The translations under genes were made by a program, and so were the position numbers. Below are positions 23,726-37,025 of a stretch of 48,092 nt of DNA, piece by piece. Each line of letters begins with the position of its first letter. Position 1 is the first letter of the stretch. The notes beneath the pieces were generated by a model that saw nothing but the letters and a program-made list of their open reading frames with translations, ran no database searches and was not told the DNA's origin. Origin of the DNA: a virus; IMG/VR virus record IMGVR_UViG_3300050500_000285. One strand, written 5' to 3'.

Positions 23726-24100
23726 TCAAATCGTTGATTTCGCAACCATGCAGACCAGGCCGCGGGCCTGACCGCGCCGTAAGCAGTCCCACGTGCCGCG
23801 ACTCTCGCTGTCCGGAAAGGCCAGCAACCAGTCGTCGGGCGGGTCGGCGAAGTTGACCATCCTCTGGTTGCGGTCGTGGAAGCGCTGCGGCGAGGGGGCG
23901 GCGCTGTTGACGCAGACCTTCAGCGTGTTGCAGCCGAGCTGCACGAAGAACTCGAACGCGCGCTTGTCGACGCTGTCTTCGGTGTCGTCGTTGTCGCCAA
24001 CGATGGCCAGGGATGGGTGGCCGAATCGGTCAACCCACCGGAGAAGCCATGGGCGCAGGGATGGGTGGCCGCGGCGCGATCCGGTGACCACCAGCTTCAT
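23726..24100 (-). CDS. SLOG-superfamily DUF2493-like protein (124 aa)
   Basis: It shows MKLVVTGSR... LAIVGDN...VDKRAFEFFVQLGC ... RFHDRNQRMV ... WLLAFP...SRGTWDCLRRGQARGL, which is collinear with the DUF2493 pattern as I remember it. The Gly-rich nucleotide-binding loop is degenerate. Confidence 0.55.
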   Translation of the reverse strand: MKLVVTGSRRGHPSLRPWLLRWVDRFGHPSLAIVGDNDDTEDSVDKRAFEFFVQLGCNTLKVCVNSAAPSPQRFHDRNQRMVNFADPPDDWLLAFPDSESRGTWDCLRRGQARGLVCMVAKSTI

Positions 24101-24495
24101 GGCTTCGTGTGCAGCCCGCGCTCGACGTCGATGAGCAGGGCGTGTAGCCGGCTCTCAGCGGCGGGACCTCGGGCGTAGGCCAGGATGTCGGAACGCTCGA
24201 GCCGCCGGCCGCGCTGCTCGGCGCCTTCGATGCATGCCTGCTTCAGGGCCACCTCGTCGCGCTCGGCCGCGAGCTCAGCTCGCAGCGCGTCGTGGCGAGC
24301 AAGAAGGTCAGCGCATCCAGCGTGCCTATTCACCAGCTCGACGAAGCGTCCCGCCAGCTGCCACAACTCGCCGGCACTGACGTTGCCGATGAGCCTCGCG
24401 GTCGGTTCCCAGGACGCCGCGCACGCACCAACGTCGGTCGCGATGCGCAGCAACTCCTCGTCACTCGCCATCGCCATCACTTGCGGTTTTTCCAC
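24097..24495 (-). CDS. Hypothetical protein (132 aa)
   Basis: GTG start with GGAGGA ~4 nt upstream. An ATGA overlap links it to the next gene. Confidence 0.6.
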   Translation of the reverse strand: MEKPQVMAMASDEELLRIATDVGACAASWEPTARLIGNVSAGELWQLAGRFVELVNRHAGCADLLARHDALRAELAAERDEVALKQACIEGAEQRGRRLERSDILAYARGPAAESRLHALLIDVERGLHTKP

Positions 24496-24504
24496 GGTTC
24501 CTCC

Positions 24505-24738
24505 TCAGCGCTTGCGCGCGGCCTTGTGCTTGACGCCGAACGTGCAATGCGCGTGCACGGTCAGCTTGGGGTTGTTCTTTGCGTCGAGCGTGATGCTCGC
24601 CGCGTGCACGTACTCGTTCTCGGACTTTCGCCAGGCTGGTAGGTGGCACTTCGGGCACGCCACGGCCACGGGCCACTTGCCGCCGATGACCTGGCCCACG
24701 CGCTTGGGCTCCACGCGGATTTCAACTGGCTCAGTCAT
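24505..24738 (-). CDS. Small Zn-binding-like protein (77 aa)
   Basis: It contains a CPKC...HAHC pattern. The start overlaps the upstream gene by 8 nt. Confidence 0.55.
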   Translation of the reverse strand: MTEPVEIRVEPKRVGQVIGGKWPVAVACPKCHLPAWRKSENEYVHAASITLDAKNNPKLTVHAHCTFGVKHKAARKR

Positions 24739-24976
24739 CGTCCTCGTCGTCCTCGTCGTCCGGCACCGGGCGACCGGAGCGAATCCCACCTATCACGGCG
24801 CGCAGGTCGGTCTCGCTGCGCGAGCGGTAGTACTGGGCCCAGGCCTCGCAGCGATCTCGCTCTTCCTGCACCGCCTCGCCGCGCGCCTTCTCCAGCACCG
24901 CCACGCGCAGCTTGAGCGCATCGTTTTCGGCACGCAGGCGGTCGCGCTCGGCGTACAGCTCCTCCCACGTGCTCAT
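24731..24976 (-). CDS. Coiled-coil protein with a poly-acidic C-terminus (81 aa)
   Basis: The sequence includes LYAERDRLRAENDALKLRVAVLEKA and ends ...PDDEDDEDDD. It has an ATGA overlap. Confidence 0.6.
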   Translation of the reverse strand: MSTWEELYAERDRLRAENDALKLRVAVLEKARGEAVQEERDRCEAWAQYYRSRSETDLRAVIGGIRSGRPVPDDEDDEDDD

Positions 24977-25473
24977 CGCACCAGCTCCAGCGCTGCCATG
25001 AGCCCGGTCCAGGCCACCTCATCGGCGTCACCGGCCTCGTAGCGCACCAAGAGCGTGCACTCGCCGGAGGTGACGGTGTTGGCGCTGCCTGGGCACACGT
25101 CGACCGTCGAGCAGCCCGATGGCGGGCCGTGGCCGACCCACAGCGCATACTCTCCGAGCTCCAGGTTGATGTCGCCCGCTGCCTTGCCCCACGCGTAAGC
25201 GTCGGCCGCGGACATCTCGTTGCACAGATGCACGTACAGCGGAGGACCCTCGATGCGCTCGTGCTCCTCTGCGCAGCCGCAGAGGAGCACCGCGAACAGT
25301 ATAGCGAGCTGCCGGAAGCGCTCGGCCCTGCCTTGCAGGTGAGCCTTGAGCATCGTCACGTGCGGCTGGCAATCATCCGCCGCCTCCTGGAACGCCTCGG
25401 CCGACTTTAGCAGCACGTCGCGCAGGTCCGCGCGGTCCAGGGCGCTCAGCTCAACAGTTTTCTTGTCGCTCAT
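24973..25473 (-). CDS. Hypothetical protein (166 aa) containing an internal lipoprotein-type signal (RFRQLAILFAVLLCGC)
   Basis: ATG at 25473. An in-frame Met (MLKAHLQGRAERFRQLAILFAVLLCGC) could initiate a lipoprotein form. Confidence 0.5.
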   Translation of the reverse strand: MSDKKTVELSALDRADLRDVLLKSAEAFQEAADDCQPHVTMLKAHLQGRAERFRQLAILFAVLLCGCAEEHERIEGPPLYVHLCNEMSAADAYAWGKAAGDINLELGEYALWVGHGPPSGCSTVDVCPGSANTVTSGECTLLVRYEAGDADEVAWTGLMAALELVR

Positions 25474-25643
25474 CGCATCAACCTCCCAGTTCGAATCTCG
25501 CGCTCCGCCTCGACCAGCCGCGCCGCCTCCAGGTAGCCGTTGCATGGTGCGCAGGACAAACCGAACCGCATTTCCCAGTCGGAATCGTCGAGGTCGACCG
25601 GAATGCTTCGCTCGAAGTGGGCTCGCGTCAGTTTTCGTCTCAT
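25470..25643 (-). CDS. Hypothetical protein (57 aa)
   Basis: ATGA overlaps at both ends. Confidence 0.5.
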   Translation of the reverse strand: MRRKLTRAHFERSIPVDLDDSDWEMRFGLSCAPCNGYLEAARLVEAEREIRTGRLMR

Positions 25644-25882
25644 AACCCACCTCCCGGGCCGACCAGCGACCACTCCAAATCCCTCAAACCAGGCCTGCGC
25701 TCGAGCATGCCTTCTCGGATACGCTCCACGTCCTCACGTGTCTCGGAACCGCCCCAGACCTCCCATGGGCCGCCTGGGCGCCGAAGGCAAATCACCCAGT
25801 GACGCTCGCGCCCGCGGCCCTTCGCCACGTAGCTCTGCCGAAGGGCGCTGCACGCACGCTCGTCCTCAGAAGCGTCGCTCAT
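25640..25882 (-). CDS. Hypothetical protein (80 aa)
   Basis: The ATG at 25882 shares one base with the stop of the TM micro-ORF (TGATG). Confidence 0.55.
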   Translation of the reverse strand: MSDASEDERACSALRQSYVAKGRGRERHWVICLRRPGGPWEVWGGSETREDVERIREGMLERRPGLRDLEWSLVGPGGGL

Positions 25883-25998
25883 CAACGCCTCCCAAGCCAA
25901 AGCGCAATGCCGAGAAGGCACAGCGCCACCACCAGGCAGCCGAGAATCAGGACCAGCAGCACCGCCAGCGTGATTGCGCCCCATGCCACCCTGGTCAC
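25882..25998 (-). CDS. 38-aa single-pass membrane micro-protein (VTRVAWGAITLAVLLVLILGCLVVALCLLGIALWLGRR)
   Basis: This ORF is not in the ORF track. It starts at a GTGA-coupled GTG. Third-position G/C is about 30 of 38 codons, whereas the overlapping track frame (MGRNHAGG...) is T-rich at third positions. It has a clean hydrophobic helix with a basic end. Confidence 0.5.
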   Translation of the reverse strand: MTRVAWGAITLAVLLVLILGCLVVALCLLGIALWLGRR

Positions 25999-26141
25999 CG
26001 CGGCCTCGCGCGCACCTGCCGAAGCGCAGCGCGCTGGAAAAAGTTGCGACCAGTGCGGCGCTTGCTGCCGTAGCGAAGCGTCCTGCGCCCAGTCTCGAAC
26101 TGCCTAATGGTGCGCTGAATCCACCGCGTAACGCTCGCCAT
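25995..26141 (-). CDS. 48-aa arginine-rich micro-protein
   Basis: This ORF is not in the ORF track. ATG at 26141 lies 3 nt after the RHH stop, with GGAGGG 8 nt upstream. Third-position G/C is about 37 of 48 codons. Confidence 0.5.
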   Translation of the reverse strand: MASVTRWIQRTIRQFETGRRTLRYGSKRRTGRNFFQRAALRQVRARPR

Positions 26142-26144
26142 GGC

Positions 26145-26324
26145 TCAGCCCTCCGCCGCAGTGCGCTTCTCGCGATCCTTGCGCAGCGCCTCGAGCCGGT
26201 TGAACGCGTACATCACGAGCTCGTCGGTCGCCTCGCTCAGCGACAGCGAGCGCTCTTTCGCGCGCGTAGCCACCACACGATGAGCCTCGGGTCCAATCCT
26301 CACCACTCGTCGATCCGTTGCCAT
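26145..26324 (-). CDS. Ribbon-helix-helix (Arc/MetJ/CopG-like) DNA-binding protein (59 aa)
   Basis: The sequence MATDRRVVRIGPEAHRVVATRAKERSLSLSEATDELVMYAFNRLE fits a strand-helix-helix layout. GGAGG lies 5 nt upstream of the ATG. Confidence 0.55.
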   Translation of the reverse strand: MATDRRVVRIGPEAHRVVATRAKERSLSLSEATDELVMYAFNRLEALRKDREKRTAAEG

Positions 26325-26344
26325 GTGCACCTCCAGATCGTTAC

Positions 26345-27481
26345 CTACCGCGTCGCGCCACTGGATGCAAATAGAATCCTCGCCGCGATGCCTGGCTGGT
26401 CGAACGACAGTGGGTACCCGACGGTGTGCTTTGCCGCCTGAATGCAGGCGAGCGTCGTATTGAGCCCGGCGTTGGTCACCACGACGTCGGCGCGCGCGAT
26501 CAGCGCGTAATGCGGCGCCCAGGGCACCACCAGCACGTCTTTGGCCCCGTAGCCATCCTCGCCGAACAGCTTCAAGCGCACGGCCGCGTACAGCTCGCGA
26601 ACGCTCACCAAAGCCCCATCGGCGAGGCCGTTGCCACCGGTCGAGACGACCACCTGCGCGCCGGTCTTGGCCGCCGCCTGGACGGCGTTGCAAATCGTGC
26701 TCACGGCCGCCTGGTCGTGCGCAATCGTGCCCATGCACACGTACACCAGCCCCCGCTCGGGCTCGAGCCAGAACCACGGAAACGGGACTTCTTCCTGGTC
26801 GCGCGTCACCCACGCTCCCGTGGCCAGGAACGGCGCCTCCCACGCGCGCGGGAAGTCGAGCCAGAAAGGCTGCTGAGCGACCTGCGCGCGGCCCACGTAC
26901 ACGCTGTTGCCATCGGCGTCGTGCAGCGGGATTCCGTGCGCCTCGCGGTAGCGCTCGAGATCGCTCCACACGTGTCGGAAGACCCACGCGAAGTAGTTCC
27001 AGCCAAGGCGGTCGCGCAGCTTCCCGGCCCAGCCGCTCGCCGGCTGCCAGGCAAAGATGGGCGGCGGAATGGCCGGGTCGTAGGACATCGACAACGCCGC
27101 GCAAAACGTCGCGTACGGCATCCCCCGCCGCGCGGCCACGAGGCAGGCGCCCTGCAGCGTCTCGTCGATCACGAGCGCATCCAGCTCGAGCTCGCCGCAC
27201 AGAAGGTCCAGGGCACCTCCAAGGAGCTGCGCGTTCGCCGCGCGCAGATACGTCGCCAGCGCTCGCAGCGCGGCCAGGCCGGACTCTTTCCCGAGCTCGG
27301 CGCGCCCCGGCGCCTCGGTCGCATAAAGCGCATGGCCGACCCAGAGCTTAGATGCGCGCTCATGCCCCGGCGGACGCGTCACGAGTATCGCCTGGTGTCC
27401 GAGATGGCCGAGCTCGCGCGCCAGCTCGATGGCTGGGTTCATGTGCCCCATCAGCTCTGGAACGACGACTCCGATTCTCAC
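26345..27481 (-). CDS. GT1-family (GT-B fold, MGT/UDP-glycosyltransferase-like) glycosyltransferase (378 aa)
   Basis: The N-terminus RIGVVVPELMGHMNPAIELARELGHLGHQAILVT shows the G-H-x-N-P motif. The C-terminal donor-binding region is VVVTNAGLNTTLACIQAAKHTVGYPLSFDQPGIAARI. The start at 27481 is set by a GTGA overlap. Confidence 0.75.
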   Translation of the reverse strand: MRIGVVVPELMGHMNPAIELARELGHLGHQAILVTRPPGHERASKLWVGHALYATEAPGRAELGKESGLAALRALATYLRAANAQLLGGALDLLCGELELDALVIDETLQGACLVAARRGMPYATFCAALSMSYDPAIPPPIFAWQPASGWAGKLRDRLGWNYFAWVFRHVWSDLERYREAHGIPLHDADGNSVYVGRAQVAQQPFWLDFPRAWEAPFLATGAWVTRDQEEVPFPWFWLEPERGLVYVCMGTIAHDQAAVSTICNAVQAAAKTGAQVVVSTGGNGLADGALVSVRELYAAVRLKLFGEDGYGAKDVLVVPWAPHYALIARADVVVTNAGLNTTLACIQAAKHTVGYPLSFDQPGIAARILFASSGATR

Positions 27482-27879
27482 GGCCGCACCGTGCCTTTCG
27501 GCCACCACACAAGCTCCCAGGTGGACTTGTCGAGGTCAGCATCCCAGCCGGCCTCACGAACGGCGCTCAGCACGTGCCTACGCGCAATAGACCATGCCTC
27601 CGCTCTTTCCGACGCTGACGGGAGCTCTTCGTGTACCTCGCGCGCGTCGTCTTCTTGCTGGGTAAGACTGGAGACTGATTGGCTGTACCTCTCGTTGAGC
27701 CGCGGTCGAAACTCGCGAGCAAGACACATCCCGCTATCGCCCAGAACCATCTTGCTGGCGATGGCGGACCGGATGCGCGCCTCGAACTCGATGGCCTTTA
27801 TGCTGATGCGCGTCTCCCTGGCTGCCCACAGCTGAGCTGGAGACGGGAGGCGATCGAATCCGCGCCCGTCGACGCTCAT
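27478..27879 (-). CDS. Hypothetical protein (133 aa)
   Basis: ATG at 27879 with a 4-nt overlap to the upstream gene. The longer track ORF is an Arg/Gly-rich shadow. Confidence 0.55.
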   Translation of the reverse strand: MSVDGRGFDRLPSPAQLWAARETRISIKAIEFEARIRSAIASKMVLGDSGMCLAREFRPRLNERYSQSVSSLTQQEDDAREVHEELPSASERAEAWSIARRHVLSAVREAGWDADLDKSTWELVWWPKGTVRP

Positions 27880-28196
27880 GGCCGCACCAGACCCATCACG
27901 ACCCCGAGCGCCTTGTGCGTGCAGCGCGCGCAGGCGATGCAGTCTCCCAGCAACACGCACGCCCACGTGCGCTTGCCGCACTCCGTGCAGCGCCGCGCCT
28001 CGACGAGCGTTTTGTCGCCCGTGAGCAACGCCACGTCCTCCGCCGTCGCGTTCGGGCCTACCAGGCACAACTGGTCGTACACGTCCTTTGCGCTCGTGCC
28101 GTCCTGGCGCACCGCCCAGCCTTGCGGCCCCTCGTGTCTGGCACGCCAGGCCTCCGCCGAGGCCAGTACCTGCGCGCTCTCGCTGAGGTCTTTCAT
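27876..28196 (-). CDS. Cys-rich Zn-binding-like protein (106 aa)
   Basis: The C-terminal segment reads CTECGKRTWACVLLGDCIACARCTH. It has a 4-nt overlap. Confidence 0.55.
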   Translation of the reverse strand: MKDLSESAQVLASAEAWRARHEGPQGWAVRQDGTSAKDVYDQLCLVGPNATAEDVALLTGDKTLVEARRCTECGKRTWACVLLGDCIACARCTHKALGVVMGLVRP

Positions 28197-28444
28197 TGCG
28201 CCGCCTCGCCTTCCCGGGCCCGCTTCGCGGCCATCGCCGCAGTGATGGAGCCGCGCGCCGTCATGAACTTTTCTCGCACGCTCGCGTAGGCTTTCTCGTG
28301 CTTTAGTGGCACAATCGCGGCGCGCTGCGAGAACGTTTCGAGCCTGGCCATCACGTACAACAGCGCGTCGACCTCCTGCTCGTTGAGGCTCATGCTGGCC
28401 CGCGACGGCGCCATGCCAGTGCCGTTCACCCTTCGCTTGCTCAT
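28193..28444 (-). CDS. Hypothetical protein (83 aa)
   Basis: Four-nt overlaps at both ends. Confidence 0.55.
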   Translation of the reverse strand: MSKRRVNGTGMAPSRASMSLNEQEVDALLYVMARLETFSQRAAIVPLKHEKAYASVREKFMTARGSITAAMAAKRAREGEAAQ

Positions 28445-28935
28445 TTGCCTTCTCCGAGAATCGCAAGAGCCGCGTCGTCGGCGCCGGCCTTTACCGCCAA
28501 CACCGCGCACCGAATCGTTTCGCGCAGGCGGGCCGCCTCGAGCGCTCCGGGGTGGCGAACGTGCGCCTTGATGGCGATGATGTCGTCCTCGGTGAACGGC
28601 GCCTTGGTTTCGAGCAGAACGCGCACGAGCTCGTCCAGGCGCGACACGGCCCGAGCCACGCCCTCCACTTCATGGCTCATGCGCGCCAGCGCGTTCGCAA
28701 GCATGGCCGTGTCCACCTGCGCTGTGTCCAGCACACCGCCGGCGTGCTGCAGGAACATCGCACGCTTGAGCTCGAGCTCCTTCTGCATGGCCTCGCCGCC
28801 ATCGCAAAGCGCGCGCTGGCGTTCGATCTCCTTGAGCACCGCCTGGTCGTGGTCGTCGCGCGGCGGGTTGAAGGCCACGCTGCTTCTTGGCCGGATAACA
28901 TCCGCGGCCGTGCCGATCTTTTCTTGCTCGTCCAT
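28441..28935 (-). CDS. Hypothetical helical protein (164 aa)
   Basis: ATG at 28935 is preceded by GGAGGGA. Confidence 0.6.
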   Translation of the reverse strand: MDEQEKIGTAADVIRPRSSVAFNPPRDDHDQAVLKEIERQRALCDGGEAMQKELELKRAMFLQHAGGVLDTAQVDTAMLANALARMSHEVEGVARAVSRLDELVRVLLETKAPFTEDDIIAIKAHVRHPGALEAARLRETIRCAVLAVKAGADDAALAILGEGK

Positions 28936-28936
28936 C

Positions 28937-29353
28937 TCATCCCTCCAGCACTTCCAGGTGTTCATTCCTGGAAGCAAAACCAAGGCGCTCGGCCATCTTG
29001 CGCAGGCCCACGCCACCACGGCGCCGGTCCACCACCATCACGGGGCGCACGCCGCCCGCGGTCACGACGGCGTACTCTTTTCCTACCAACATCAGAGCTT
29101 CAACCGCGGCGTGCGCGAGCGATGGCGGTGCCGAGTGGCTTGTGACAAGCCACTCGAACATCAGCAGCGGCCAGTGCTCGATGACGCCGACGCTAGCGAC
29201 GTAAGCGTGCCCGTGCCGAATCGAGAGCGCCGCGACGCTTGGATGTGGCTCACGCGGAATGAGCACGCCACGGCACTCGGCCGCGTATTTGGCGTATTCC
29301 CAATACGGAACACCGTCGACAATCAGGAAATCGCCCCGCAGAATCGGCTTCAT
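28937..29353 (-). CDS. Hypothetical protein (138 aa), weak GNAT-like motif
   Basis: ATG at 29353 has GGAG 8 nt upstream. The segment VVDRRRGGVGLRKMAERLGF resembles GNAT motif A (R-x-x-G-x-G). It is the first gene after a 190-nt gap. Confidence 0.3.
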   Translation of the reverse strand: MKPILRGDFLIVDGVPYWEYAKYAAECRGVLIPREPHPSVAALSIRHGHAYVASVGVIEHWPLLMFEWLVTSHSAPPSLAHAAVEALMLVGKEYAVVTAGGVRPVMVVDRRRGGVGLRKMAERLGFASRNEHLEVLEG

Positions 29354-29543
29354 GGCAGAACTCCGCAACGGCGAGCACCGCAACGACTACAGGCTGCGGC
29401 CAGGGCCAGGCTTTCACAGCTTCCGCGCAGTGCGCGAGCGACTAGCTGAGTCATCGAAAACACGGGTCACCTCGATCGCGCTCAGAAGGTTGTGCGCCCA
29501 GCTTGGCATCGAGCTCTACCCGCTGGTTCGAAAGGAGTGGTAC

Positions 29544-29666
29544 ATGACCAAGGTCTACAAGCGACAGCTGCGCTGGCTCACCGACGAAGAAGTCGGGCGC
29601 ATCATGGAGCTATTTCACAAGCAGCTACAGGACAAGCGCGATCGCTACGTCAAGCACGCGCTCTAG
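29544..29666 (+). CDS. 40-aa basic protein (MTKVYKRQLRWLTDEEVGRIMELFHKQLQDKRDRYVKHAL), the lone rightward gene inside the leftward block
   Basis: AAAGGAG lies 6 nt upstream of ATG 29544. Third-position G/C is about 33 of 40 codons. Its stop shares CTAG (29663..29666) with the converging gene. Confidence 0.5.
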   Translation: MTKVYKRQLRWLTDEEVGRIMELFHKQLQDKRDRYVKHAL

Positions 29667-29929
29667 CCGCCATCATCGTCCCACCCGCCGCGCCCATGGT
29701 TCCCCTGCCCGCCTCGGCCCTGCTGCCCACCGCCGGCCTGGCGCTGGTCTCGCGGAAGCTCGACGTTGATGTAATGCGAACCGCCGGTCAGCGCGACGCC
29801 AGGCGGCAGGTCGATGTTGCCGCGCGTGCCGTCGAACCACAGCGAGCCAATGCCGTTGACGTACCGCTTGGTGCCGCCCTTGTCCGTGTAGCAGATCGAG
29901 ATCTCGTAACGCTGCCTGCTCATGATCAT
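29663..29929 (-). CDS. Small protein with a Gly/Arg/Gln-rich acidic-ended tail (88 aa)
   Basis: ATGA overlap start. The C-terminus reads QAGGGQQGRGGQGNHGRGGWDDDGG. Confidence 0.55.
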   Translation of the reverse strand: MIMSRQRYEISICYTDKGGTKRYVNGIGSLWFDGTRGNIDLPPGVALTGGSHYINVELPRDQRQAGGGQQGRGGQGNHGRGGWDDDGG

Positions 29930-30195
29930 CCCGCCTCAGCGCAGGGAGTGCCGTCGCCCAAGGTCGGCTCCCGCCACGCGTCCATCTTATCTGCGCAAGA
30001 GCGAGCTTCGGCGGCCTTCTCAGGCCGGCCGCCGGCCGCCTCGTAGTCATCGGCCCATTTTCGGACCGCGGCCGGCGCGTGCTTGTCGCGCGCGCAAAGC
30101 ACGAACAGCGGCTCTCCATCGTCTGATTTGTTGATGCAGCTATTGGGATTGCTCAGTTCTTCTCTTTTCAACACGCTCTCACCATCCTTCCACAT
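29926..30195 (-). CDS. Hypothetical protein (89 aa)
   Basis: It overlaps the upstream gene by 17 nt. Confidence 0.5.
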   Translation of the reverse strand: MWKDGESVLKREELSNPNSCINKSDDGEPLFVLCARDKHAPAAVRKWADDYEAAGGRPEKAAEARSCADKMDAWREPTLGDGTPCAEAG

Positions 30196-30406
30196 CCGGC
30201 GGTTTCGGGTCCGGCCAAAGCTTGCGCTCAGCCAGTCCTAGCGCAGCCCGGCACTCGCGCGAGCACGTCATGAACGGCGTGCCACCGATGCGGCGGGCAA
30301 GCGTCATCTCCGGCGGTGTCAAGTGCACGTCCCACGCAAAATCGAGCTGGCCCGGCGGCGCCATCACGCCGCACTTGACGCAAAACCTGTCCGCCTGCTC
30401 AACCAC
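30179..30406 (-). CDS. Zn-ribbon-like protein (75 aa), first gene of the leftward block
   Basis: It contains CVKCG...CSREC. The start is GTG and the RBS is weak. Confidence 0.5.
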   Translation of the reverse strand: MVEQADRFCVKCGVMAPPGQLDFAWDVHLTPPEMTLARRIGGTPFMTCSRECRAALGLAERKLWPDPKPPDVEGW

Positions 30407-30480
30407 GCCCAGAAGCTAGACTGGATTCTAATCGGATGCAAGCGCTTGACTGGCTATTTGGATTCTATTATCGTCCAGGC
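30407..30480. promoter_or_regulatory. Divergent early/late control region, AT-richer than its surroundings
   Basis: It holds a TGGATTCTA direct repeat (30422..30430 and 30459..30467; the reverse complement contains TAGAAT). TTGACT at 30446..30451 is followed after 17 nt by TATCGT at 30469..30474. It lies between the two divergent gene blocks. Confidence 0.45.
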
Positions 30481-30648
30481 ATGCGTGAACCGGAGCGAGC
30501 CACGAAGAACCTGAGCGGCGTAAAGTGCACGCCGACCACGAAGGCGTCGATGATGCGGCTCTGGCGCAAGGAAGCGGCGCCGCAGGAGTCGTTCGGTGCC
30601 TGGGCGCGCCGCAAGCTGCTCACGCCGCAAGCCGCGGTGCAGCCATGA
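30481..30648 (+). CDS. Small basic protein (55 aa), possible RHH-like regulator
   Basis: The ATG at 30481 lies ~7 nt after the -10-like hexamer, so the transcript may be leaderless. The track start at 30436 is an alternative. The sequence LSGVKCTPTTKASMMRLWRKEA..SFGAWARRKLL fits a strand-helix-helix layout. Confidence 0.4.
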   Translation: MREPERATKNLSGVKCTPTTKASMMRLWRKEAAPQESFGAWARRKLLTPQAAVQP

Positions 30649-30932
30649 GAACCGTGACCGTCGAGCTGAGCGAAATCTTGTCGCTGGTATCGTGCGCCGA
30701 CGACTACGGGTTCGTGAACGACGTTCTCTTCGACGCGCTGGCCGAGTTCGCCGGCTACACGCTCTCCGACGAAGAGATTTCGGAGTTCGCCGGCAGCTTT
30801 CTGGAGCCCAAGCAGATCGAGGCCGGATACGGCCAAGAGGACGCCGACATGGCGGTCGAGCGCCTGGAAGAGTGGCGCCGCCGTTACTTCGACTCGGTTC
30901 GCGCGAGAGACTTCAGGGAGCGTCACCAGTGA
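30645..30932 (+). CDS. Acidic hypothetical protein (95 aa)
   Basis: ATGA overlap start. Confidence 0.55.
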   Translation: MRTVTVELSEILSLVSCADDYGFVNDVLFDALAEFAGYTLSDEEISEFAGSFLEPKQIEAGYGQEDADMAVERLEEWRRRYFDSVRARDFRERHQ

Positions 30933-31132
30933 AGTGCGACCGGCGCTGGTGGAACGATGGGCGTCTCGAGCGCGAGATTGGCGCGTTCGCGCGCGTCGAG
31001 CTGCTCGAGCCGCTTGGGTTTGACGGTGAGCCGTTCACGCAGCTCCACTGGTGGGAGCCGGAGGTTCGCTGGTACGTTTCGCCCTCGTTCCTGAAGACGG
31101 TTCCGACGATGTACATGGTGAAGGCGTGCTGA
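30929..31132 (+). CDS. Trp-rich hypothetical protein (67 aa)
   Basis: GTGA overlap start. Confidence 0.5.
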   Translation: MKCDRRWWNDGRLEREIGAFARVELLEPLGFDGEPFTQLHWWEPEVRWYVSPSFLKTVPTMYMVKAC

Positions 31133-31647
31133 CCGCTGACCAGCTCGTTCCAGGCGTAACCTGGGGGCCGCCTTGGCTCCTGTGGGGCCTCGGAGAGATG
31201 GCGGTGTTCGAGGCGCCCGGCGACAAGGACCACCCGCGCATCGTCTGGTACCACTCGCACACGGCGGCCGGTGCGGCGCCAGATTCGGTGGCCTGGTGTT
31301 CGTCGCTCGTGAACGCCGGGATGCAGTCCTGCGGGTACCCAGGCACACGCAACAAGGCGGCCTCGAGCTGGCTGCGCTACGGCGTTCCTTACAAGCTGTG
31401 CCTTGGAGGCATCCTGGTGTTCGGCAAGTCGGACCCGGACTCCAAGGGAACCGGTCACACCGGATGGTGCGCCGGCTGGTCGAGCGAGTGGGTGCTATGC
31501 CTGGGCGGAAACCAGCAGAACCGTGTTAGCGTCGCGCGCAGGCCAATCTCCGCTCTGCTCGACGTGCGCATGCCGCCTGCCTACCTCGCCGAGTTCGGCG
31601 ATCCAGCGTCGAAAGGAGTTCGGCCGGGCACCCCGCTTCGTACGTAG
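31126..31647 (+). CDS. Endolysin, NlpC/P60-CHAP-like (TIGR02594-type) peptidoglycan hydrolase (173 aa)
   Basis: The sequence reads PWLLWGLGEMAVFEAPGDKDHPRIVWYHS...VAWCSSLVNAGMQ...AASSWLRYG...GGILVFGK...GTGHTGWCAG...LGGNQQNRVSV, with catalytic-type Cys (WCSS) and His (GHTGW). Confidence 0.7.
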   Translation: MLTADQLVPGVTWGPPWLLWGLGEMAVFEAPGDKDHPRIVWYHSHTAAGAAPDSVAWCSSLVNAGMQSCGYPGTRNKAASSWLRYGVPYKLCLGGILVFGKSDPDSKGTGHTGWCAGWSSEWVLCLGGNQQNRVSVARRPISALLDVRMPPAYLAEFGDPASKGVRPGTPLRT

Positions 31648-31695
31648 ACCACCTGAAGACGGGGTGGGGTGCCTTGGTTGGCAAGAGGAGCAAGC

Positions 31696-32091
31696 ATGAC
31701 GAGAATCATCAGGGACCACCAGGTCAACGAGTGCAATGAGGCCATCACGATCAGCGCGGATGAGCCCGACGCGAAGTACGGCAATGCGAGTCACTGCTAC
31801 GTTCTTTCGATCACCCGCCGCTTTCCGGACACGGAGCAGGGCGAGCCGTCGTCGGAGACGTGGGGAATCCAGTTCCAGCGCGGTCCCATCAAGGAGGTTG
31901 GAGTCAACGGCCTCACGAACGAGGCGCTGCTCGCGGTGCTCATCGACCGGATGCGCGGGTTCCAGTCCGGCCCGTTCTCGTGCCAGGAAAACGCCATCGT
32001 GTTGACGCACCTTCAGGATGCCCAGCACTGGCTGTTGCATCGCACGCGGGAGCGCATGAAGCGAGGGGTGGAGGGTACGAACAAGGTCTAG
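31696..32091 (+). CDS. Conserved-looking small phage protein of unknown function (131 aa)
   Basis: GAGGAG lies 6 nt upstream of ATG 31696. The C-terminal part (FQRGPIKEVGVNGLTNEALLAVLIDRMRGFQSGPFSCQENAIVLTHLQDAQHWLLHRTRERMKRGVEGT) resembles a recurrent phage family that I cannot name. Confidence 0.65.
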   Translation: MTRIIRDHQVNECNEAITISADEPDAKYGNASHCYVLSITRRFPDTEQGEPSSETWGIQFQRGPIKEVGVNGLTNEALLAVLIDRMRGFQSGPFSCQENAIVLTHLQDAQHWLLHRTRERMKRGVEGTNKV

Positions 32092-32410
32092 GCGTGGCGC
32101 GCGCTGACTCGCGCTCAGAGTCCGGCCCGTGACCCAGCAGCACAGACTATAAGCGTGAGGGCTGGGCACCGGAAACGACAGCCGGTAGTGGGGTGGGAAT
32201 CCCCCGGATAACGCGGTCGTGACAGCCGGGAGAGACCGGCACTGAGGGAGGACGGGCCGTCCCAAACAGGTCCTGGGGTGGCACGCGACCGGATTCGCGG
32301 CTGGTAGAACGACGGCCAAACACTGCCCAAACCACCCGTGGGGTGCCTAAAAGCAGAAGTCGTGACAGCTCGGAGAGACGGCAATCTGACCTTATAAAAC
32401 AAGTGCCGCT
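32092..32410 (+). ncRNA. Candidate structured non-coding RNA or long structured 3'UTR with two homologous modules
   Basis: No credible ORF exists on either strand. The core GTCGTGACAGC..GGAGAGAC.GGCA is duplicated at 32216..32241 and 32359..32383 (23 of 26 positions identical). GTGGGGTG motifs lie at 32188 and 32338. There are several GC hairpins, and an intrinsic terminator follows immediately. Confidence 0.4.
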
Positions 32411-32440
32411 GGCAGACCGGTTGAATAGTCTGCCGCTTTT
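32411..32440 (+). terminator. Rho-independent terminator candidate
   Basis: GGCAGAC (32411..32417) pairs with GTCTGCC (32428..32434) around a 10-nt loop, followed by GCTTTTC. Confidence 0.5.
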
Positions 32441-32467
32441 CGCGCGCGAGCGCATGGATGGTGCTAG

Positions 32468-32731
32468 ATGGCCAAATACAGGAAAAAGCCGGTCGTGATC
32501 GAAGCGGTTCAGTACACTGGCGAAAACACTGGAGAACTGCTTGGGTTCGCGCCCGACCACGTTCGCGTTATCTTCAACAACGACGATCCGTGTGGCATCG
32601 ACGTCAGAACGCCCAACGGGGTGGTCGGCGTGAATGTCGGCGACTGGATCATGCGAGGCACAACCCCGGGCGACTACTACCCGTGTCCAGCCGAGACGTT
32701 CGCAGAGACATACGAGCGCGTCTCGGAGTGA
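32468..32731 (+). CDS. Small conserved phage protein (87 aa)
   Basis: The sequence MAKYRKKPVVIEAVQYTG...GDWIMRG..PGDYYPCPAETFAETYERV recalls the N4 gp49 / Sf6 gp66-type small protein family. That is from memory and is not verified. Confidence 0.6.
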   Translation: MAKYRKKPVVIEAVQYTGENTGELLGFAPDHVRVIFNNDDPCGIDVRTPNGVVGVNVGDWIMRGTTPGDYYPCPAETFAETYERVSE

Positions 32732-33385: not shown

Positions 33386-33568
33386 ATGGGCACGCACCAC
33401 ACGACCACACTGCGAGGCCTCGACGCGCTGCAAATCGCGCTGCGCGACCCGGCTACGCCCATCTTCCGGACGCGCTTCGGCAAGCTCGAGCGCATCGAAC
33501 TGCACGACGCAGCCGCCCTGGCAGCCAGGGAGCGCCACAGCGAATTGCTGGTCGAGCTGCCTGCATAG
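33386..33568 (+). CDS. Hypothetical protein (60 aa)
   Basis: An ATG-initiated ORF with a GC-rich third position. It is the last gene before the AT-richer island. Confidence 0.45.
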   Translation: MGTHHTTTLRGLDALQIALRDPATPIFRTRFGKLERIELHDAAALAARERHSELLVELPA

Positions 33569-33653
33569 CCTGTTTTGGACCGATCGCCAAACCACCATCA
33601 AATCAACTCAAGTAGTTGATATTGCATGGTTTTGTGCGATCGGCTCGGCGTGG

Positions 33654-33671
33654 TGCGTAAACCTTTACGCA
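33654..33671. promoter_or_regulatory. Palindromic site 1: TGCGTAAA-CC-TTTACGCA
   Basis: Read directly from the sequence. It is identical to the core of site 2. Confidence 0.7.
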
Positions 33672-33685
33672 GCCAATGTTGGCTA

Positions 33686-33704
33686 ATATCAGGTTACCTG
33701 ATAT
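33686..33704. promoter_or_regulatory. 19-bp palindrome ATATCAGGT-T-ACCTGATAT
   Basis: Read directly from the sequence. It lies between sites 1 and 2, and TACCTGA recurs at 33706..33712. Confidence 0.6.
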
Positions 33705-33748
33705 CTACCTGACACCGTGAAATATCCTGGCAATCCACCTCACAAATA

Positions 33749-33770
33749 GGTGCGTAAACCTTTACGCACC
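33749..33770. promoter_or_regulatory. Palindromic site 2: GGTGCGTAAA-CC-TTTACGCACC (10-bp arms)
   Basis: Read directly from the sequence. Confidence 0.7.
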
Positions 33771-33795
33771 ACCTCCTGCTACACGGTGTTTTTGG

Positions 33796-33813
33796 TGCGT
33801 AAAAACTTATGCA
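33796..33813. promoter_or_regulatory. Palindromic site 3 (degenerate): TGCGTAAA-AA-CTTATGCA, abutting TTGACA
   Basis: Read directly from the sequence. The left arm is identical to sites 1 and 2, and the right arm matches at 6 of 8 positions. TTGACA follows at 33814..33819. Confidence 0.55.
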
Positions 33814-34017
33814 TTGACACGCCTATTTTCAGTGTGGCTGTCTCGCGCGCGTCGTCTCGGTTGTAGCCGGATGCCGCGCCAAGCAGGTCTAGCCGGCCGT
33901 GCAGTCCAGTGCGTCTCTGGGGTTGAGCAGCCTTCGGGCGGTGCAGGAAGCGGCTGGGGACGGCGGTGTGTCGAACGGGCGTCCTGAGCGGATGCTATTG
34001 CAGCCAGGCGGTCGGCG

Positions 34018-35047: not shown

Positions 35048-35475
35048 CCATCACCCGGCGCGTCTCCAAGCGTCCCATCGAGCAAGAGCGCCTGTTGCAG
35101 GCGGTCAACAAGGAAATCGTACCGGCCGTCATCGAGCTGATCGAAGAGGCGAACGAGGCGGACGTCGACGTGGCCGCGCTGGACGTACGAGTTGAAGCGC
35201 TCGAGGTGATTGGCGTGGCGCATGAGGCGCGCATCGACACGCTCGAAGAGCCGCCGTTCGAGGCCGACTTCGGCGACGGCGTGGCCACCACGTTCGACTT
35301 CGCGCACAACTTCAACACATACGCGGTGCGCGCGGTGATTTGGGACAACGCGACGCGCACGGTGCAAGCGCTGGCCACGGAGTCGATGCTGACCCTGAAC
35401 ACGTACCGCGTGGTCCTGGGAGCTCCGCCCGCCGCGAGCGCGCTCCACGTCGCCATTGGTAGGCTGCGCGGGTGA
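35044..35475 (+). CDS. Hypothetical protein (143 aa): N-terminal coiled coil plus a beta-rich C-terminal domain
   Basis: GTGA overlaps at both ends. The C-terminal part FEADFGDGVATTFDFAHNFNTYAVRAVIWDNATRTVQ looks Ig-like or fibre-like rather than like a small terminase. Confidence 0.55.
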   Translation: MTITRRVSKRPIEQERLLQAVNKEIVPAVIELIEEANEADVDVAALDVRVEALEVIGVAHEARIDTLEEPPFEADFGDGVATTFDFAHNFNTYAVRAVIWDNATRTVQALATESMLTLNTYRVVLGAPPAASALHVAIGRLRG

Positions 35476-37025
35476 GCGCGCCAGGCAACATCTACGGCGT
35501 CGAGAACGACCTGCAGGAGGCGGCGAGCTACATCTACAAGCCGAGCAAGTGGCAAACCGAGTACCACACGTGCCCGGCGGATTTTCTGCTCGGCGCAGGC
35601 GCCGCCGGAGTTGGCAAGACCCTGTGCCTCATCATGGATCCGATGAAGCAGGTAATCGTAGAGCACCAGCGTTGCAGCGACCGCGCGCATCCGTACCCGA
35701 TTCGCTGGGGCCGCAGTACCGGCTGGGCGCTTCACCTGCGTCGCGAGCTGCAGCAACTGCAGCAGACCATCGACACCACGCAGCGCATTTATCCGGAGAT
35801 AGATCGCAAAGCCGATTTCTCTGTGAAGTCGAACACGTGGACGTTTGCTAGCGGATACAAGATTCAGTTTGGCCACTGCAAGGACAGCAACGACCACGAG
35901 CAATACCTGTCAAGCGCGTACACGCACCTGGGCCCGGATGAGCTGACCCAGTTTGAAAAGAAGCAGATAGACGGCCTGCGCTCGCGCGTGCGATCGACAG
36001 ACCCTGTTCTGCGACCGATGCGCTGCACGCGCTCGATGAGCAACCCTGGCAAGTCGCCAGGCGCAGACCCGGACTGGGTGCGCAAGATGTTCATCGACCC
36101 GCATCCGGCTGGCCGCAAGATGCTCGTGCGCATGGGCACGCGCCGCGACGGCACGCGCTTCCGGCGCACGCATATGTACCTGCCAGGCAGGCTGAGCGAC
36201 AACCCAAACCGGGAGTACGCGTCCGACTACGAGGCGAGCCTGCTCGACCTGCCAGAGCATATCATTCGCGCCTACCTAGACGGCGATTGGTACTACCAAG
36301 TTGGCGCGTTCTTCGGCAGCGTGTGGGACTCGCGCATCCACGTGGTGCGTCCGTTCCGCATCCCGAGCCACTGGCGCGTGTTCCGCTCGTGCGACTGGGG
36401 CTTTCGGATGCCCGGCTGCATCCACTGGTGGGCCATCGACGACGACGGCGGCCTCATCGCGTTCGAGGAGCTCAAGTTCAAGGAGTTGACCGATGAGCAG
36501 GTGGCGCAACGGGTGAAGAGCATTGAGATTCGGCACGGGCTATGGGACAAGCGAGCTAACAAGAGCATGATTTCGGGCCCGGCAGACACCCAGCTTTGGG
36601 AGCAGCGCGGCGACAGCGCCAAGCGCAAGGTCGACGTATTCCAGGAGAACGGCATCATCTGGCACCAGGCCGACAAGTCGCCGGGAAGCCGCGCGCACCA
36701 CGCGCAGCGCATGACGAAGCTGCTCAAGAGCCACCAGGGCGGGACGCGGCTCCCCGGGCTGATGTTCATGTCGAACTGCGTCTACGCGACCACGACCATT
36801 CCCCAGCTGCTGGTTGACCCGGACAAGCCGGAGGAGTGGCTGAAGAGCGACGACGACCACGCCGCCGACTCCGTGGCGTATGCCACGGCCTGGGCATCCA
36901 CCGGCAATGCTGGCGACGTGGCGCGCGGAGACAGGGCCGCCGCCGATGAGCTGGACAAGGTTTTTGACGAGCCGAAGAGTTCGGGCGTGACGTCCGGCAA
37001 GGGCGCTTACGGGATCTACGTATAG
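35472..37025 (+). CDS. terL: Terminase large subunit (517 aa)
   Basis: It has a Walker A motif (GAGAAGVGKT), the right size, and sits directly upstream of the portal gene. The C-terminal half fits a nuclease domain (acidic residues, DDHAADS). Confidence 0.8.
   Translation: MSAPGNIYGVENDLQEAASYIYKPSKWQTEYHTCPADFLLGAGAAGVGKTLCLIMDPMKQVIVEHQRCSDRAHPYPIRWGRSTGWALHLRRELQQLQQTIDTTQRIYPEIDRKADFSVKSNTWTFASGYKIQFGHCKDSNDHEQYLSSAYTHLGPDELTQFEKKQIDGLRSRVRSTDPVLRPMRCTRSMSNPGKSPGADPDWVRKMFIDPHPAGRKMLVRMGTRRDGTRFRRTHMYLPGRLSDNPNREYASDYEASLLDLPEHIIRAYLDGDWYYQVGAFFGSVWDSRIHVVRPFRIPSHWRVFRSCDWGFRMPGCIHWWAIDDDGGLIAFEELKFKELTDEQVAQRVKSIEIRHGLWDKRANKSMISGPADTQLWEQRGDSAKRKVDVFQENGIIWHQADKSPGSRAHHAQRMTKLLKSHQGGTRLPGLMFMSNCVYATTTIPQLLVDPDKPEEWLKSDDDHAADSVAYATAWASTGNAGDVARGDRAAADELDKVFDEPKSSGVTSGKGAYGIYV

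Follow-up and report, generated by a model that had tools for sequence, protein, structure and literature searches.

A small covarying RNA motif, present twice in a non-coding gap of a phage genome, recurs at gene junctions of phages from diverse hosts and is a possible antitermination signal

The DNA considered here, referred to as the window, is a 48,092-nucleotide (nt) stretch of viral DNA from the IMG/VR collection (record IMGVR_UViG_3300050500_000285). A 376-nt gap at 32092–32467 separates the stop codon (32089–32091) of a 131–amino acid (aa) gene from the next credible ATG, at 32468. The gap holds no credible open reading frame (ORF): the ORFs that overlap it, of 95, 137, and 274 aa on the minus strand and of 51 aa on the plus strand, have no Pfam or PHROG match at E ≤ 0.1, in line with an earlier annotation made from the letters alone (the sequence-only reading), which had taken the segment to be non-coding. 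The same annotation had noticed two homologous modules within the gap. Each of these is identified here as one copy of a self-contained sense-strand RNA element that consists of an optional stem (P1), a CA linker, a 5–base pair (bp) G+C-rich hairpin (P2) with a GARAGA loop, and a 3′ A. The motif is found, with nearly identical unpaired bases, in at least about 160 distinct viral and metagenomic places.

The cores of the two modules, GTCGTGACAGCCGGGAGAGACCGGCA at 32216–32241 and GTCGTGACAGCTCGGAGAGAC-GGCA at 32359–32383, are identical at 23 of 26 positions with one gap. They are spaced 143 nt apart, and the sequence between them is unrelated. The core pattern GTCGTGACAGCNNGGAGAGAC, in which 19 bases are specified, occurs twice in the window, compared to 0.01 occurrences in shuffled sequences; two matches were reached in 0 of 100 shuffles. 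A covariance model built from 13 IMG/VR copies, none of which comes from the window, matched the 48 kb at exactly two places, both on the plus strand and both corresponding to the modules seen by eye (Table 1); the next-best score was 10 bits. Single-sequence folding of module 1 recovers P1 and P2 (z = −4.4 for the P2 hairpin alone), and folding of module 2 recovers P1 and the bulged P2. The folding energy of the whole 376 nt is no better than that of shuffles (z = 0.06 on the plus strand and −0.01 on the minus strand), so thermodynamics alone could not have singled out this region.

Table 1. Features in and around the 376-nt gap, with positions in the window.
Feature	Position	Strand	Remarks
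Upstream 131-aa gene	31696–32091	+	phrog_2428; sub-threshold match to the Acb2/Tad1 hairpin domain; neighbor, outside the motif
Imperfect local hairpin, GUGACCCAGC / GCUGGG-CAC	32129–32169	+	encloses −10–like TATAAG (32148–32153); not conserved in the family
Module 1	32171–32245	+	covariance-model match, 51.6 bits, E 4e-12
Module 1, 5′ flank		+	G72-A73-A74
Module 1, P1	32175–32179 with 32216–32220	+	ACGAC with GUCGU
Module 1, P1 loop	32180–32215	+	variable; holds its own GGGG/CCCC hairpin
Module 1, junction	32221–32224	+	GACA
Module 1, P2	32225–32229 with 32236–32240	+	GCCGG with CCGGC
Module 1, P2 loop	32230–32235	+	GAGAGA
Module 1, 3′ A	32241	+	
Inter-module spacer	32246–32304	+	hairpins GGACG/CGTCC (32250–32262) and CGCGA/TCGCG (32284–32299); lineage-specific
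Module 2	32305–32387	+	covariance-model match, 38.4 bits, E 1e-8
Module 2, 5′ GA	32307–32308	+	
Module 2, P1	32309–32313 with 32359–32363	+	ACGAC with GUCGU
Module 2, P1 loop	32314–32358	+	opens with GGCCAAAC (present in other phages too); contains the CACCC-GUG-GGGUG hairpin
Module 2, junction	32364–32367	+	GACA
Module 2, P2		+	pairs G68-C82, C69-G81, C71-G80, G72-C79; U32370 bulged
Module 2, P2 loop	32373–32378	+	GAGAGA
Module 2, 3′ A	32383	+	
Weak intrinsic-terminator–like hairpin	32411–32440	+	stem GGCAGAC/GTCTGCC (32411–32434; 7–8 bp, 10-nt loop), then GC-UUUU (32435–32440); 28 nt ahead of the next start codon
Downstream 87-aa gene	32468–32731	+	phrog_419, function unassigned in PHROG; first gene past the gap
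Large terminase gene	35472–37025		downstream of the phrog_419 gene

In close relatives of the window phage the gap is identical throughout, and they therefore provide no local covariation. Strong covariation became apparent once relatives of the motif had been collected, which supports the structured RNA proposed by the sequence-only reading and places it on the plus strand. All counts from the motif scans are lower bounds, to be read as “at least” or as “among the matches listed.” The consensus is G-R-[A-C-G-N-N … N′-N′-C-G-U]-G-A-C-A-[G-C-N-N-G G-A-R-A-G-A C-N′-N′-G-C]-A, with P1 in the first bracket and P2 in the second. When IMG/VR was scanned with the core, it was found in at least 36 contigs, compared to ~0.4 matches expected by chance for 19 specified bases in roughly 60 Gb (our own estimate, made without a tool). 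Changes in the P2 stem are compensated among these contigs (CCGG/CCGG, CCCG/CGGG, CCTG/CAGG, CTGG/CCAG, CCAG/CTGG, and CTCG/CGAG), and GUCGU can be paired by a GAACGAC farther upstream, with a highly variable length of sequence between the two. A scan of metagenomes using a pattern with two P2 pairs left free revealed at least 119 distinct places. Both free pairs are complementary in 117 of the 119 places listed, compared to a mean of 48 for shuffled partners, and there are 230 Watson-Crick pairs, 6 G·U pairs, 0 A·C pairs, and 2 mismatches. Since G·U is present without A·C, the structure is assigned to the transcribed (sense) strand. When 109 members were aligned to the model, 99.2% of cells were paired and both sides changed in 7 of 10 pairs; the observed values were reached in 0 of 500 shuffles, and all slid registers collapsed. 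This alignment was fitted to the model, and the free-pair counts of the pattern scan therefore weigh more.

The two inner pairs of P1 also covary (ACGAC/GUCGU, ACGCC/GGCGU, ACGUC/GACGU, and ACGCG/CGCGU), and P1 of this covarying type is present in 118 of 159 copies. The P1 loop varies from <10 to >100 nt and is not conserved. P1 is optional, as can be seen from the GAAC-UGACA-hairpin forms of phages mEp390, Alexa, and Pokken and of locus L024; this form, of ~27 nt, is common among cultured phages. The P2 loop reads GAGAGA in 143 copies and GAAAGA in 17. Approximately 25 positions of the 46-nt minimal unit are near-invariant, many of them unpaired purines, and the base of P1 consists of A-U, C-G, and G-C pairs, which tandem sheared G·A pairs between the 5′ GA and the GA of GACA probably extend. 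The 3′ boundary of the motif is sharp (the hairpin plus A), and the bases that follow are C/U-rich and G-poor (A 78%, C 48%, then U up to 49% compared to an 18% background).

Only the two modules, of 46–83 nt, are conserved elsewhere, which does not agree with the proposal that the whole ~330 nt form one conserved RNA. The hairpins listed by the sequence-only reading at 32225–32240, 32250–32262, 32284–32299, and 32333–32345 are all present at these positions. The first of them is P2 of module 1; the other three, together with the hairpin at 32129–32169 and the TGGGGTG repeats, turned out to be lineage-specific spacer or P1-loop inserts rather than parts of the motif. The GTGGGGTG repeat, confirmed at 32188 and 32338, and the CACCC-GUG-GGGUG hairpin are explained by the extra hairpin that both P1 loops of the window hold. 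The inter-module spacer folds no better than shuffles (z = +1.2) and has no counterpart in other motif loci. Upstream of module 1, the hairpin arm GTGACCCAGC had been read correctly but lies at 32129–32138, not at 32130–32139; the hairpin to which it belongs folds with −18.2 kcal/mol (z = −1.5). The −10–like box inside this hairpin, a possible promoter judged by its letters, stands ~18 nt ahead of module 1. Downstream of module 2, the terminator-like stem-loop followed by GCUUUU is located where it had been placed, but its strength had been overestimated: with a 10-nt loop and four U only, it folds with −13.4 kcal/mol (z = −0.8), and a consensus terminator scan left it below threshold and did not call it.

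TGGGGTG is not enriched window-wide (8 copies observed and 5 expected). Four plus-strand copies of the eight are located within 680 nt, at 31665, 32189, 32274, and 32339, those at 31665 and 32274 having been noted before, and GTGGGGTGCCT occurs in exact form at 31664 and 32338. The repeat lies outside the conserved family and may be a lineage-specific protein site or a duplication remnant.

Cultured carriers of the motif infect at least eight host genera and belong to phage types that differ widely. They include the lambdoid Escherichia phage mEp390 (Hendrixvirinae); Klebsiella phage P7641; the T1-like Cronobacter phages CS01, SG01, and ESP2949-1; Pseudomonas phages Medea1 and Cruim01; Stenotrophomonas phages BUCT708/709 and the N4-like Pokken; Ralstonia phage GP4; Acinetobacter phage Alexa, which is P2-like by gene content; and phages MinM2, Pag-Yong1, Pra-JY27, and Mwe-JY26 of cyanobacteria. 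In cellular DNA the motif is rare: 7 places were found in 185,579 species genomes (596 Gb), at least one of them probably by chance. The genome-record carriers are Engelhardtia mirabilis and a Phycisphaerales metagenome-assembled genome (MAG) (Planctomycetota), an Acidobacteria MAG (Acidobacteriota), Pseudoxanthomonas, and Gluconacetobacter. They thus include Alpha- and Gammaproteobacteria, and the Planctomycetota and Acidobacteriota copies lie in prophage-like regions. Two phage-plasmid–like replicons, L455 and L456, carry the motif inside a non-coding RNA cluster with transfer RNAs (tRNAs). Within this cluster, which spans 1.3–1.7 kb, are a short tRNA-like gene of 61 nt and, at 2774–2857 and thus 245 nt downstream of the motif, a tRNA whose anticodon is UUA (ochre-suppressor type by ARAGORN). 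In the Alteromonadaceae MAG CBDIHK010000022.1 (L089, ~2850–2881), the core GTCGTGACAGCCGGGAGAGACCGGCGCAAAACA forms a 32-nt spacer between type I-E–like repeats GTATTCCCCGCACCAGCGGGGCTAAACC of a CRISPR array, indicating that a host acquired immunity against a conserved phage sequence.

A search of the window against Rfam 15 gave no match at the gathering threshold and, at E ≤ 10, only a chance match to P11 (12 bits, E 3.8) outside the motif, which agrees with the earlier failure to name an RNA family by eye. In 20 motif loci Rfam found tRNAs only, and the same was true of L455. A literature string search for the core, whose scope did not extend to the 10,006 unnamed structured-RNA candidates of an IMG/VR survey (PMC10690425), returned only unrelated primer sequences. 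We file the motif as a putative new family; its kind, a structured phage RNA that is located at operon junctions and probably binds host machinery, has precedents.

The motif does not follow the genes that flank it in the window. No significant match was detected in 49 loci with relatives of the 131-aa gene (the best, 14.9 bits with E 0.07, lies on the strand opposite the gene), and there was no match at all in 80 loci with relatives of the 87-aa phrog_419 gene. Save for the one marginal match, the motif is therefore absent from these 129 viral loci (535 kb), and the element is neither a gene-specific leader nor the elaborate 3′ untranslated region (3′UTR) of the 131-aa gene that the sequence-only reading had offered as an alternative. 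Genes downstream of the copies are diverse (terS, primase/helicase, Dam methylase, adaptor-like, chaperone-like, WhiB, and HNH genes and tRNAs). Among proteins encoded within 5 kb of the motif, clusters join near-identical phages only, and no protein is common across loci. With the exception of a helicase, proteins of the window were not found in other motif loci, and in four complete carrier genomes no protein family was shared by three or more of them, although phmmer could miss small divergent proteins. A partner encoded by the phages is not apparent. Near-invariance of the unpaired bases across phyla, in combination with the lack of a shared phage protein, argues for either a conserved host partner or a self-sufficient RNA, and a conserved host component would be the most likely partner.

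In mEp390, the motif is located downstream of the cI-like repressor gene and ~150 nt ahead of an intrinsic terminator and the early-left operon. In BUCT708 and P7641, a divergent control region is adjoined by a first gene (cro-like in BUCT708), and the motif comes next, within gaps of 685–700 nt. Medea1 is arranged in the same way, a strong terminator following the motif at a distance of 225 nt, and in MinM2 the motif lies in the leader following a divergent promoter region. Other copies lie between the early small-gene run and the terS/terL/structural run (CS01), 24 nt ahead of an HNH gene with terS farther downstream (GP4), directly ahead of terS (L022 and L023, in the latter with a terminator between motif and terS), and in an untranslated run (Pokken). 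The window gap fits with these long non-coding contexts at operon junctions. Copies also precede head-tail adaptor–like and tail-chaperone–like genes (weak PHROG matches). A Shine-Dalgarno (SD)–like sequence and an ORF start are located within 40 nt of 50 of 124 copies, with a peak at 20–30 nt, compared to 8 of 67 in the control.

Most copies are not near tRNAs: a same-strand tRNA lies within 150 nt for 21 of 159. All 39 tRNAs within 400 nt are co-oriented with the motif, and in eight copies just 3–5 nt separate the end of the motif from a tRNA 5′ end. The motif occupies a single slot midway along the L321 array of at least 22 tRNAs, in the order tRNA, 4 nt, motif, 4 nt, tRNA. Neither ARAGORN nor the Rfam tRNA model ever called a motif copy a tRNA. 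In the closely related IMG/VR contigs L213, L214, and L231, different tRNA genes are inserted exactly at the motif 3′ edge, after GGGCACC; in these contigs, the edge appears to coincide with a hotspot of tRNA gain and loss.

Several further observations concern the leaders of cultured carriers. A second, weak copy in mEp390 (L447, 27658–27728, 15 bits) lies within a doubtful annotated 80-aa hypothetical protein gene, “gp36” (27501–27743); the ~780 nt between the repressor gene and gp35 may be non-coding. The leaders of mEp390, BUCT708, and P7641 have a second conserved element with two complementary arms, AUGRAAGCGCAYUCC … GGAGUGCGCUYCCAGUUGU (L359, 2525–2700; L450, ~1480–1650; L452, ~1370–1450). 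CUGUGUGUAGUCUUGGC and an intrinsic terminator come after it in mEp390 and BUCT708, and the mEp390 element has no Rfam match. In the 882-nt BUCT708 gap (L450, 1114–1995), GGAAAGAC(C) recurs approximately seven times, and two copies read GGAAAGACCAAUG. The latter has the appearance of a ribosome-binding site with a start codon behind it, so that the loop of the motif resembles BUCT708’s own ribosome-binding sites.

The reading that we favor, with a probability of roughly one in three, is that the motif acts in cis as a nascent-RNA signal on the host elongation complex and works like the nut, put, and rrn-boxA antitermination sites. Binding of the nascent element to elongating RNA polymerase would be either direct, as for HK022 put, or mediated by Nus-type factors, as for boxA/boxB of nut and rrn leaders, and the bound polymerase would become resistant to termination. 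In the window, transcription would proceed from the −10–like box through the two copies and the weak terminator into the gene block leading to terminase (late genes). Co-transcriptional action in cis is proposed in view of where the element is found, namely, at operon junctions and within long stretches that are not translated. Antitermination is favored because copies stand at junctions (following cro/cI-like genes, ahead of late genes, and within untranslated tRNA runs), because P2 resembles boxB, and because there are precedents in put, EAR, and canT, processive antiterminators that consist of RNA alone (PMC9378689, PMC11658703). A location downstream of an early promoter and upstream of terminators is seen in mEp390, BUCT708, P7641, Medea1, MinM2, L023, and the window, with Alexa as a counter-example.

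A number of observations weigh against antitermination. Intrinsic terminators are not enriched within 250–300 nt downstream of the motif family-wide: a strict scan found them at 7 of 124 copies compared to 6 of 124 in the control, and a loose scan, which is too noisy to trust, found them at 23 of 116 compared to 31 of 116. The terminator cap that the sequence-only reading had made part of the element is thus not general. Tandem arrays of two or three copies, 130–250 nt apart, are common (the window, L265 and L275 with three copies each, L282, L263, L246, L329, Alexa, MinM2, and BUCT708), which is not so in known nut and put sites. The Alexa pair lies past the integrase gene, together with a terminator, at a convergent junction with no co-directional gene after it, and the L321 copy is in the middle of its tRNA array, not at the head. 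No boxA-like string was found 5′ of the hairpin; the bases there are (C)G-U-G-A-C-A, preceded by P1 or GAAC. In positions 24000–32000 of HK022, expected to span the immunity region and the put sites, the motif model had no match at E ≤ 1, the comparison being made in that one direction. Approximately 40% of copies stand just 10–40 nt before a start codon, where a translational or messenger RNA (mRNA)–end role fits equally well. Both the binding partner and the effect on termination are putative.

The boxB hairpin of phage lambda is GCCCU-GAAAA-AGGGC. Like nut sites and rrn leaders, the motif combines a conserved single-stranded box with a neighboring 5-bp G+C hairpin with a purine loop, would act as nascent RNA, and is found after cro-like or cI-side promoters, before terminators, and in untranslated tRNA/rRNA-type units. 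It differs from them in lacking a boxA consensus (CGCUCUUUA-like) a few nt upstream of the hairpin, in having a GARAGA hexaloop on a covarying 5-bp stem instead of the purine-rich, GNRA-like pentaloop (GAAAA/GAAGA) of boxB, in the UGACA box that abuts the hairpin, and in the extra optional P1. In addition, no N-like protein is common to the carriers, within the limits of phmmer for small divergent proteins, and the motif is often tandem and has the same sequence across phyla, whereas N/boxB pairs are lineage-specific. HK022 put acts through the zinc-binding domain of the RNA polymerase beta′ subunit and needs no protein factor to suppress termination. A further precedent is provided by HK022 put, EAR of Bacillus eps, and canT of Tn916, which, like the motif as proposed here, are RNA-only and independent of a dedicated phage protein, have two stem-loops, and are located in early leaders; the target of put, RNA polymerase, is conserved enough to explain conservation across phyla (PMC9378689, PMC11658703). 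In contrast to put, whose ~70 nt form long, irregular stems and include a triplex (PMC9378689), the motif has minimal forms of 27–50 nt, and its antitermination is putative. Judging from these differences, the motif does not seem to be a member of the nut or put families.

The main alternative, whose probability we put somewhat below that of antitermination, is that the motif is a processed trans-acting small RNA, excised from tRNA arrays or leaders or ended by a terminator, that titrates a conserved host protein (an RNA-binding regulator, a ribonuclease (RNase), or a defense nuclease), with the number of copies setting the dose. The common tandem arrays, the tRNA-sized slot in L321, and the Alexa pair with its terminator at a convergent junction are better explained by such a decoy than by antitermination. 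RNase P cleavage at the copies that end 3–5 nt before a tRNA would set the 3′ end of the motif RNA, and the mEp390 copy, which follows the repressor gene, would be made in lysogens. The motif’s independence of neighboring genes, its location after a candidate anti-defense gene (Acb2/Tad1-like) in the window, and its presence in the non-coding RNA clusters of the phage-plasmid–like replicons are also consistent with a decoy. A pure dose model, however, does not predict the recurrent placement at early/late and cro/cI junctions, nor does it fit with the ~40% of copies that abut a ribosome-binding site and start codon. The loop, which lacks the central GGA of CsrA targets, is not known to match any sponge target; the partner, expression, and processing of such an RNA are putative.

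Two groups of known RNAs can be compared with a motif RNA acting in trans. Small stable RNAs from within phage tRNA clusters, such as the T4 species 1/2 RNAs, and the large tRNA-linked RNAs GOLLD and ROOL share with it a location in or beside phage tRNA arrays, co-orientation, and tRNA-like spacing, and the motif would likewise be released by tRNA processing; it is much smaller, has no Rfam match to GOLLD or ROOL, and is near a tRNA in the 21 of 159 copies given above. Sponges of the CsrB/RsmZ type also repeat hairpins with a fixed purine loop in a non-coding transcript able to end in a terminator. The motif differs from these sponges in that its loop lacks ANGGA, its copies are 130–250 nt apart rather than packed, and many are single copies in leaders. 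The riboregulator, decoy, or protein-binding RNA suggested by the sequence-only reading is a live option; judged by its contexts in other loci, a cis element at operon junctions is indicated no less strongly.

Less probable, and in our view unlikely, is a role as punctuation in cis, with a conserved host RNase cutting beside the element and the stable hairpin capping one of the neighboring mRNAs, the downstream one at its 5′ end or the upstream one at its 3′ end, thereby setting segmental stability. The sharp 3′ boundary followed by C/U-rich, G-poor bases, the wobble pairs on the sense strand, and the copies 3–5 nt before tRNA 5′ ends would be expected in this case, and the tight spacing to SD-like sequences and start codons would be explained. 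The same applies to copies ahead of adaptor- and chaperone-like genes, upstream of which capsid and tail genes are expected by the usual gene order. However, invariance of the loop and of UGACA across phyla is not explained unless one conserved RNase reads them, and we know of no RNase that reads a UGACA/GARAGA-type signal. By our structural reasoning, the stems are too short for RNase III, and there is no mimicry of a tRNA acceptor/T arm. Tandem copies and the slot in the tRNA array have no obvious use in punctuation.

The remaining explanations are less likely. That the motif is a ligand-binding or catalytic RNA, i.e., a small aptamer (including a “sponge” of a free nucleotide signal) or a self-cleaving ribozyme, seems improbable. 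The ~25 near-invariant positions of the 46-nt unit, with their many unpaired purines, conservation across phyla without a shared protein, restriction to phages, frequent tandem arrangement, and the adjoining Acb2/Tad1-like gene in the window are all compatible with it. Nevertheless, the common ~27-nt form without P1 could hardly house a pocket or active site, conservation is lacking in the P1 loop, no pseudoknot partner was noticed by eye, no Rfam ribozyme or riboswitch is matched, and a riboswitch-type gene association is not seen. We attach an equally small chance to a protein-free anti-defense RNA, a minimal aptamer or pseudo-substrate that would be expressed in many copies, from tandem arrays, tRNA arrays, and leaders, would soak up a conserved immune component (a nucleotide second messenger or a defense nuclease targeting tRNA or other RNA), and would thus be the RNA counterpart of the Acb2/Tad1 protein sponges; in the window, it comes directly behind the Acb2/Tad1-like gene. 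Least probable of all is a DNA-level or selfish repeat (a repetitive extragenic palindrome (REP)–like or miniature inverted-repeat transposable element–like sequence, a recombination hotspot, or a strand-specific hairpin of single-stranded DNA): it would account for sporadic, near-identical, intergenic, and sometimes clustered copies in unrelated phages and for the tRNA genes apparently inserted at the motif 3′ edge, but 6 G·U versus 0 A·C pairs indicate folding of the transcribed strand rather than of duplex DNA or the other strand, all 39 nearby tRNAs are co-oriented, no transposase or other shared protein was found, and stems that covary around fixed loops are the reverse of what REP elements show.

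Other identities were considered and rejected. A CRISPR-repeat mimic does not agree with the 7 places in species genomes, none of which uses the motif as an array repeat and one of which is a spacer, and a ToxI-like type III antitoxin array does not agree with cores that are 143 nt apart with unrelated sequence between them or with the fact that phrog_419 is not linked to the motif elsewhere. Downstream genes form no single functional class, as they would for a riboswitch, and a gene-specific leader or 3′UTR was discarded given no significant match near the 49 upstream-gene or 80 downstream-gene relatives. A promoter (sigma-70, extracytoplasmic function, sigma-54, or T7/SP6-like) was rejected because of the GAACG-CGUGACA distance, which ranges from <10 to >100 nt, covariation of both stems, the lack of a conserved −10 box, and the failure to find a phage RNA polymerase among the ten largest ORFs of the window. 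Core motifs and topology do not fit hammerhead, hepatitis delta virus–like (theta), or other ribozymes, as far as can be reasoned, and Rfam was negative. In a tRNA mimic or RNase P minihelix the strand continuity would be the wrong way round, and an ACC tail is found in some copies only. A selenocysteine insertion sequence or read-through at the UGA of UGACA was rejected since this UGA is out of frame with the upstream ORFs and beyond their stops. Likenesses to 23S H93, 16S h44, the csp cold box, and the sarcin-ricin loop were discounted, since the letters that match are at covarying, non-conserved positions. A loose pattern, GAACGAC N8–30 GTCGTGAC, yielded almost only chance matches.

An RNA of 27–50 nt whose unpaired letters stay unchanged across lambdoid, T1-like, N4-like, and P2-like phages, cyanophages, and prophage-like regions of Planctomycetota and Acidobacteriota must read something common to all these hosts. 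Should this partner be the transcription elongation complex, the motif would be a signal for antitermination or insulation that is portable, does not depend on a protein, and functions across phyla. Such a signal would help explain how early/late junctions are crossed, and long untranslated tRNA arrays transcribed, by phages that lack an N- or Q-like factor, and synthetic biology would gain a compact part. Should the partner be a host RNA-binding or defense protein, the motif would represent a new class of phage decoy RNA. In either case, the motif model lets annotators label a recurrent “empty” gap in phage genomes, and since mEp390 carries a copy, the motif is directly testable in E. coli.

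The 131-aa gene upstream of the gap matches the Acb2/Tad1 hairpin domain of Pfam with E 4.5e-4 and 20.8 bits, below the cut-off of 27, and the precomputed annotation of the collection also gives this domain. Its product is a candidate anti-CBASS/anti-Thoeris sponge. Leftward genes, including those for a helicase, ERF, and DUF932 at 13.7–21.8 kb, switch to rightward genes at ~30.4 kb; past the switch, three rightward genes are followed by the gap, small genes, and the large terminase gene. The sole tRNA in the window is tRNA-Ala(GGC) at 939–1013, near the window start and within a mechanically listed 725-aa ORF (880–3057). Either the start of this ORF is probably wrong or the tRNA probably marks a genome end or attachment region. 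Last, G+C content falls to 0.55–0.57 at 33400–34000, compared to ~0.64 elsewhere. This stretch, which shortly precedes the 34018 ORF and has the large terminase gene ~1.5 kb downstream of it, could be a promoter or packaging-site region.

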